Assembly: GCA_964016885.1 (NCBI GenBank)
Contig: OZ024752.1
Location: 45,942,001-46,006,000 of the forward strand
Source: Eledone cirrhosa
Lineage: Eukaryota
Reading direction: 5' to 3'
Length of the DNA stretch: 64,000 nucleotides
Shown: positions 12,146 through 13,290 of the stretch, piece by piece
How positions within the stretch are numbered: position 1 is the stretch's first letter
How the letters are laid out: each line of letters opens with the position of its first letter
Translations under genes and position numbers: made by a program
The notes under the pieces: generated by a model
Told to the model about the DNA's origin: nothing
The model's input: the letters and a program-made list of their open reading frames with translations, nothing else
Databases searched by the model: none

Positions 12146-13054
12146 ACACAACATCAACAACAAATAAACAGTGACTCGTGTAATGTATAACGGAACTCTT
12201 GTTTTTTTGCTTTTTCTTCTCCGTTTTCCGTTTATGAACGCCATTTGTAAGGGAATAGGTTTAATGTCCAAAGATGACGTAACACAAGACCAGAGAAGGG
12301 AAACCAATTTGACGACCAGCTGCTGTTTATTATATGGGATAGGTCAGTGAGTCAGTGAAACGGAAGTGAAAACTGCTTCCGGTCGAACCAGAAAAAGCCT
12401 CTTGTATTACCGGATAATGTTTTTGTTTTGTTTTGTTTTGTTTTTAATTTTGTCTTTTTTCCCTTATGTTGGAAATCCTTTGTGAATACAAAAAATGATT
12501 GTATAAGCAAATTATTTTCATTTGCAAACCGGGTGAGTATGACGGGGGGTGAGACCGGGTGTGTGGTATAGGAAGGCTAAATATGGCTTTTGTGCCCCCC
12601 CCCCCCCCGCTTACTCATCGGAGGGGAGTGAGACACGGTTTCACTGGCCTTAACCTAATTGATGCGTTGTCATGGTGACGTCACAAGGCCAGCAATTTGG
12701 GGGGGGGGGGGGTAAGAGAAAGTCGATTATATCGACGACAGTATGTGACTGGTATTTAATTTTATCGGCCCCGGGGAAGGCTGAAAGGAAAGTTGACTTT
12801 GTCGAGATTTGAACTTAGAACATCAAAAAATTCTCATATGAATAATAAAACCGTTTGTCTGTGAAGAACATCAGATCGAAACTGAATCGGAAAAGAATTC
12901 GATCTGGCATTGTGTATTGGGAAAATGATGCAACTGAAAATATGTTATGATCGATTAATAGATCGAATTAGATGAAAAGATAGTAAGATAATCAAATATC
13001 TACGAATGTCATTTCGTAAAAAAGGAATCGAATTTGTTTCCCTCCTCCTTCTTC

Positions 13055-13089
<35 letters not shown>

Positions 13090-13091
<2 letters not shown>

Positions 13092-13290
13092 CGAAGGAAA
13101 TGTGGTAAGGAACCAGGTGGACCATAACGCACCAAAGTACTCAATACTTGAGGTAGTAGAGTGGGTAATAGGAACCAGTAAGACCCCGACAGCTGAGCTC
13201 AAGCCGTTTCGACGGCTAATTCTGTGAAGAACATCAGATCTAGAATTAGCCGTCGAAACGGCTTGAGCTCAGCTGTCGGGGTCTTACTGG

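Follow-up and report, generated by a model that had tools for sequence, protein, structure and literature searches.

In the 64,000-nt window of the Eledone cirrhosa genome that was analysed (GCA_964016885.1, contig OZ024752.1, positions 45,942,001–46,006,000 of the forward strand), one fold-back copy of a repeat family, termed family A here, carries in its loop a 20-mer that is also present in its own left flank. Sixteen of the loop bases (13225–13240) appear, on balance, to have been copied from 12862–12877 by microhomology-primed synthesis during the joining of two cDNA ends from a likely Penelope-type element. The identity of the two 20-mers, the overlaps at the junction and the anatomy of family A were observed directly. 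The sequence TCTGTGAAGAACATCAGATC was found at 12858–12877 and at 13221–13240, on the same strand and 363 bp apart, and, with as many as three mismatches allowed, neither strand of the window had a third site. This bears out the identity between loop and flank that had been claimed from the letters alone (the sequence-only reading). The distance of about 360 bp given in that reading holds from copy to copy, but the putative donor ends 212 bp from the left edge of the element, 30 bp of this being TA repeat.

The second copy of the 20-mer spans the 18-nt loop (13224–13241) of a perfect 52-bp fold-back (13172–13223 / 13242–13293), for which the DNA fold gave z = −21. Fold-backs were located by a custom hairpin scan, a general inverted-repeat finder being swamped by trinucleotide arrays. 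None of 100 shuffled sequences contained two matches to the 20-mer (mean 0.00). Twelve isolated, window-unique direct repeats of at least 16 nt were identified, and the 20-mer formed the only pair spaced 100–3000 bp apart outside the minisatellite at 16640–17030. The best match between the 13-kb junction and the DNA within 1 kb or 2 kb was 20 nt, the maximum in random regions being 10 nt, and a 20-nt junction match was reached by 0 of 400 random regions of 2 kb and 0 of 400 of 4 kb.

The donor 20-mer (12858–12877, + strand) lies in non-repetitive flank, and comparison of 12830–13060 with the window gave, beyond the 20-mer itself, only matches of 12–20 nt with E values of at least 3.9. The donor was rejected as part of a repeat within the window (a SINE-like copy stops near 12826), as a hammerhead (the CTGANGA core is absent there) and as the centre of an older fold-back (fold not significant, z −0.05 and −1.46).

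Family A is represented in the window by five complete two-armed copies (near 9.0, 13.1, 33.2, 42.0 and 54.5 kb), two copies with a shortened arm (24.1 and 57.6 kb) and two solo pieces (38.5 and 62.0 kb). A complete copy is about 200 bp long and consists of an arm of ~135 nt, a variable junction and an inverted copy, of ~52–60 nt, of the inner part of the arm, with ~80 nt present on one arm side only. The loops had been said to differ between copies (cgactc and agtcc being the examples), and the four other complete copies do each have a different one: CGACTC at 9058, AGACGTAATTCAGTCC at 33252, 25 nt at 42151 and AGTCC at 54629. TA runs were found on both sides of six of the seven two-armed copies. 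A target-site duplication was present in one of the seven and not discernible in the other six; in this sister copy (42002–42245, + strand), which also holds a 21-nt filler at 42154–42174, the 14-bp duplication TATATACAGATATA is located at 42002–42015 and 42232–42245. Because the duplication encloses the whole two-armed unit, the unit is likely to have arrived in one staggered-cut event.

Within the complete copies, the two arms differed at 0, 3, 0, 0 and 2 of 52 sites; arms taken from different copies differed at 1–10 sites. The 13-kb copy has three private variants, each of which is present in both of its arms. Since the arms of a copy are nearly identical and private variants occur in both, the two arms would derive from one template per insertion. 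The inverted arms stop within a few bases of one place in all six aligned copies, one of which (24131) has a non-TA flank, and this is also where the 38.5-kb solo copy begins. These fixed ends, together with the start of the solo copy, fit a second start site of the reverse transcriptase (RT). A MITE or DNA transposon with a fixed internal hairpin was rejected, the inverted repeat being internal on one side and the loops differing among copies. We take the repeats of the window to resemble those of octopus genomes.

At the 13-kb copy the element lies between a left (TA)n target tract of 30 bp (13060–13089) and a right one (13294–13330). It opens with a segment (13090–13171, − strand) that all five complete copies and also the 57-kb one have in common and that is missing from all inverted arms. 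The hairpin part of the long (main) arm follows (13172–13224, − strand), which would correspond to a first cDNA on the + strand and ends in TCTG; then come the 16-nt filler (13225–13240, + strand), identical to 12862–12877, and the inverted short arm (13242–13293, + strand), which is identical to the long arm at 52/52 positions and would correspond to a second cDNA on the − strand. In three of the four other long arms TTCT is continued by G, and the left microhomology is therefore counted as TCTG (4 nt) and the foreign filler as 16 nt. The tct microhomology of the sequence-only reading is thus a real overlap, but on the left side it amounts to 4 nt. At the opposite end, TC, the last two bases of the filler, may, as judged from the arm sequences, form a 2-nt overlap with the inverted arm if T13241 is a variant or an added base. 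T13241 is matched by neither the donor nor the commonest arm sequence, which starts AGTCCAGAA; the 13-kb and 33-kb copies have TCTAGAA instead.

Short patches on both sides of the donor also occur in the arms. CCGTTT (12851–12856, + strand), just 5′ of the donor, is found in the long arm at 13204–13209, and TCGAAAC (12876–12882, + strand), at the 3′ end of the donor, is found in the inverted arm at 13253–13259. CCGTTT and GAAAC match the arms at mirror positions, and both patches together were equalled by 0.15 % of 113,227 random sites, by a statistic chosen post hoc.

Some further details of the arm ends were recorded. The base inside TTCT is not G in three of the five inverted arms (A, A and C on the cDNA strand; positions 13241, 33252 and 9058) and differs from G in just one of the five long arms, and two inverted arms finish in the palindrome TCTAGA. 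The heptamer CTTCGTT (13053–13059) adjoins the TA tract on its left and is reverse-complementary to the first bases of the element (13090–13096); this mirror match across the tract may be due to chance.

Family A is likely to be the end of a Penelope-like retroelement, because it combines unequal arms placed head to head in (TA)n, a one-sided tail, the 3′ half of a hammerhead and a target-site duplication. An adjacent, inverted, 5′-truncated head-to-head copy is present in the seven two-armed copies, with the orientation taken from the hammerhead-like half. The 3′ half of a type I hammerhead is present in the arms as CGAAA-CGGC-(9-nt variable loop)-GCCG-UH, with a stem III of 4 bp. In the 13-kb copy this hammerhead-like half (CGAAA, then stem III and its 9-nt loop, then UH) occupies 13254–13277 on the + strand and is mirrored at 13188–13211 on the − strand. 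A motif scan found the strict form in nine of the 13 family arms with CGAAA; three of the remaining four have a G-U pair and one has a mismatch, the G-U pair of the 13-kb copy being in stem III. If oriented by the hammerhead, the arms would face each other head to head, with the turn within stem II. The 5′ half (CUGANGA) was detected in no family A copy by the motif scan. An Rfam scan gave no hammerhead among the matches listed (150 of 296) or among all 48 in 12780–13310, and the matches listed were just sub-threshold microRNA-like hairpins. No parent element and no RT or GIY-YIG frame was found for family A among the window frames or in protein searches. A 45-codon open frame on the presumed sense strand had no match at E ≤ 0.01 among longer proteins and one weak 24-stretch match (E 3.4e-4), and no PLE domain was found in eight other window frames.

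The available parts of published accounts of Penelope-like elements describe an adjacent inverted 5′-truncated copy, a one-sided tail and a microsatellite bias (PMC8557442), head-to-head junctions that contain palindromes, the one-sided tail being typical (PMC3846280), and hammerheads in pseudo-LTRs, some of them as close opposite-strand pairs (PMC4209133). As far as these parts extend, EN+ Penelope-like elements (Penelope/Poseidon, Neptune and Naiad; PMC8557442, PMC3846280, PMC11167929) have in common with family A the head-to-head arms, the extension of one arm, AT-rich or (TA)n targets, a target-site duplication in some copies, a hammerhead-like motif in the repeat and a junction at a palindromic 5′ end. 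Family A differs from the elements described there in being without an ORF or parent, in having the 3′ half of the hammerhead only and in its one-arm tail of ~80 nt, compared with the usual 30–40 nt. Published inverted Penelope junctions are described, in the same parts, with overlaps or palindromes and not with filler from the target flank.

We infer the class of the element, the timing of the event, the direction of copying and the enzyme. The element endonuclease would nick both strands of the (TA)n tract, and RT would extend both 3′ ends on the same RNA from two fixed starts ~80 nt apart, both cDNAs halting near one point in hammerhead stem II. Being identical rather than complementary, the two flaps could not anneal to each other. 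The flap of the inverted arm would then pair at 12876–12877 (2 nt) with the + strand exposed in the left flank, with the adjacent GAAAC patch possibly aiding priming, would be extended leftwards across the donor and released, and would re-anneal by its new CAGA to the TCTG of the long arm; after fill-in and ligation, the filler would form the loop of a head-to-head repeat. This path would require ~230 nt of exposed flank, and the CCGTTT and GAAAC patches may have attracted the arm end to the donor site. The earlier proposal of a template switch onto local DNA, during integration or hairpin repair, is upheld as regards copying between loop and flank with microhomology; because the loop would be the junction between two cDNA ends, integration is favoured over later hairpin repair.

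Several of these steps have counterparts in other work. In work with a purified Penelope-like protein (PMC11167929), both target strands were cut and extended, AT-rich DNA was preferred and two internal RNA start sites defined the tail. Direct-repeat insertions are the class expected where priming by one end takes place on the other, resected one, typically with a short first and a longer second microhomology (PMC7165422); in the order proposed here, those of the 13-kb junction would be 2 nt and then 4 nt. For a group II intron cDNA in Drosophila, additional junction bases copied from adjacent DNA, with PolQ involved, have been described (PMC3280974); for R2, synthesis primed by the cDNA on target DNA close by has been described (PMC11371274). 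When sites within 1 kb were ranked by pairing energy, the donor strands were 1st and 3rd of the 12 TCTG sites, and the donor was just 12th of 199 GA sites, a ranking that is weakly informative, the duplexes not being forced to include the 3′ end. The case for the mechanism rests on one clear junction, and its 2-nt overlap is weak.

As for the enzyme, polymerase theta or another end-joining polymerase of the host is a plausible candidate and would be the likeliest. [quoted passage not shown] The ends joined in family A, unlike those of TINS as described there, would be cDNA flaps. For polymerase theta insertions the template is typically within 30 bp and the primary tract is rarely longer than 10 bp (PMC7165422), and distant templates do occur (PMC7454005). 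With a template 212–231 bp from the element edge and a 16-nt tract, the 13-kb junction exceeds these limits, which are typical and not absolute. It works as a templated insertion by end-joining would at the junction of a retroelement and, because one typical feature (template distance and tract length) differs, it is not classed as a polymerase theta TINS.

R2 and group II introns resemble the present case in that the cDNA's 3′ terminus primes extra synthesis on itself or on nearby target before joining, but they join cDNA to upstream target, whereas the 13-kb filler lies between two element arms. The account of L1 (10.1101/2024.08.27.596794) describes twin priming, in which, as proposed here, both target nicks prime on one RNA, and templated insertions in which non-element DNA near the site is likewise captured. 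The two halves of a twin-primed L1 come from separate parts of the RNA, and in family A both arms copy the same stretch; L1 templates are typically within 15 bp of the site, the 13-kb donor being farther away, and family A is without poly(A).

[quoted passage not shown] This course is rather unlikely, although it accounts for the identical arms too, and the TCTG overlap sits at the 3′ end of the long arm. Related behaviour has been put forward elsewhere: self-priming (antisense template) for inverted Penelope junctions (PMC3846280), snap-back of R2 onto cDNA or nearby target DNA, and an SDSA-like switch for L1 templated insertions. The filler does hold a CAGA able to pair with TCTG, but CAGA occurs in 5 % of random 16-mers and the junction makes no use of it. 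The single cDNA would, moreover, have to invade an intact duplex on its own side, and by itself it leaves unexplained both the fixed end of the inverted arms, even on a non-TA flank, and the start of the solo copy. Perfect palindromes are unstable and breaks at their centre are repaired. A near-perfect palindrome might have been inserted, extruded later as a cruciform, cut at its centre and repaired with a filler whose template lies 363 bp away. As such repair would leave them, the loops differ in all five complete copies and the arms are almost intact. We nevertheless consider it improbable: arms identical at 52/52 positions imply that little time has elapsed, the donor would be still farther from the break, and fillers are also found where the arms are very unequal and form no long palindrome (24.2 and 57.6 kb).

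Copying in the reverse direction would make 12851–12882 a patchwork (CCGTTT, loop, GAAAC) drawn from the hairpin into a nearby break, the loop itself being untemplated. The match of both donor flanks to the arms at mirror positions, with the low frequency among random sites given above and the same post hoc choice of statistic, speaks for it; the same patches would, however, also draw the arm end in the forward direction, and with ~1,400 site-strands within 350 bp one or two such sites are expected by chance. It also calls for a further event, two additional template switches and an untemplated loop of 16 nt, and is very unlikely. An assembly or polishing artefact, a family consensus or chance is the least credible origin of the shared 20-mer and would be surprising. 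Microsatellites abound in the region and hairpins are difficult to sequence, but the window is without any N, both ends of the element match sister copies, and sister junctions hold other kinds of filler. Chance is excluded by the shuffles and the random-region comparison. That the 20-mer could be a normal part of the element consensus, which the sequence-only reading had named as grounds for refutation, is excluded within the window: the loops of the other copies differ, and none holds the 20-mer, even with three mismatches.

Eight junctions of the window were tested for a local template (seven of family A and that of a second family at 61.0 kb), of which one, that of the 13-kb copy, was clear, one borderline and six without a template. 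Local templating as a family-wide rule was not supported, six junctions being negative, and the expectation that loops across family A would match nearby flank was not borne out in the window. The borderline case is the 42154 filler, for which an exact 21-mer at 42855–42875 (+ strand), 701 bp away within a high-copy SINE-like repeat, is a candidate donor. A second exact copy of this 21-mer is present at 46261–46281 and 29 more window sites match with 1–6 mismatches; the filler was also found in 16 of 400 random 2-kb regions, and its junction has no microhomology on the left side. It could equally come from the RNA of the SINE-like repeat. Inverted fillers of 6 nt from the own arm were found at 33252 (GAATTA) and 57609 (GGAGCT); alternatively, the GAATTA of the 33-kb copy may belong to stem II as its natural 5′ side.

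Retroelement junctions with templated fillers are already known. No flank-derived filler between inverted Penelope arms was found in titles and abstract openings of the mainly open literature, and the formation of tandem and inverted Penelope end structures is described as undefined (PMC8557442). Since locus-specific flank between the arms cannot come from a pre-folded RNA, the filler points to a free chromosomal DNA end at the junction. If the preferred reading is true, the fold-back was built on the chromosome and not carried in ready-made, and the origin of inverted Penelope ends becomes testable genome-wide. With five complete copies per 64 kb, family A is probably abundant enough for a genome-wide computational survey of the origin, distance and strand of fillers, and such a survey would tell apart snap-back and twin priming with end-joining. 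Taken as a single event, the 13-kb junction is an ordinary repair scar. A broader scheme can be put forward only tentatively, with the odds against it: Penelope elements might prime both strands on one RNA, with polymerase theta stitching the identical flaps and searching hundreds of bases by multi-patch microhomology. Every fold-back copy in the genome would then be a frozen end-joining scar, and the family a library for the last step of Penelope transposition.

Other fold-backs and hammerhead-like motifs were noted in the window. A second fold-back family at 61003–61125 has the same layout, with 38-bp arms, only one of which is extended, by ~28 nt, a 17-nt loop containing the snap-back GTCACA/TGTGAC and, at the turn, a hammerhead-like 3′ half (GAC-GAAA-GAAC-TT); no local template was found for its loop. 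A near-complete minimal hammerhead-like motif at 46632–46670 (CTGACGA, an unpaired T, a 6-bp stem II and GAAA-GAAC-TT) has its 3′ half in common with the 61-kb family and is without a clear stem I, and a further hammerhead-like 3′ half, CGAAA-CTCC-TAAT-GGAG-TC, lies at 29755–29790 with no 5′ half nearby. Head-to-head fold-backs are also formed by the abundant SINE-like repeat, as is a tandem array whose fold-back units measure 37–39 nt (15684–15777, 46157–46300 and 18513–18693). A MITE-like hairpin family (62043–62426, 57394–57424, 42347–42364 and 21156–21171) has nearly the same 17-nt loop in several copies, in contrast to the variable loops of family A.

Among the open reading frames, those at 9419–9742, 18118–18519 and 26763–28510 are presumably C-terminal remnants of non-LTR retrotransposons, which they resemble; the sole domain match among them was a weak one to zf-RVT at 26766–27176 (E 0.0058). 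A short ATG-initiated frame at 50323–50667 had no Pfam match and is a possible host exon, which we take to resemble a caskin/ANKS-type N-terminus. An isolated perfect palindrome of 34 bp, centred on TATATATA, is located at 4270–4303.
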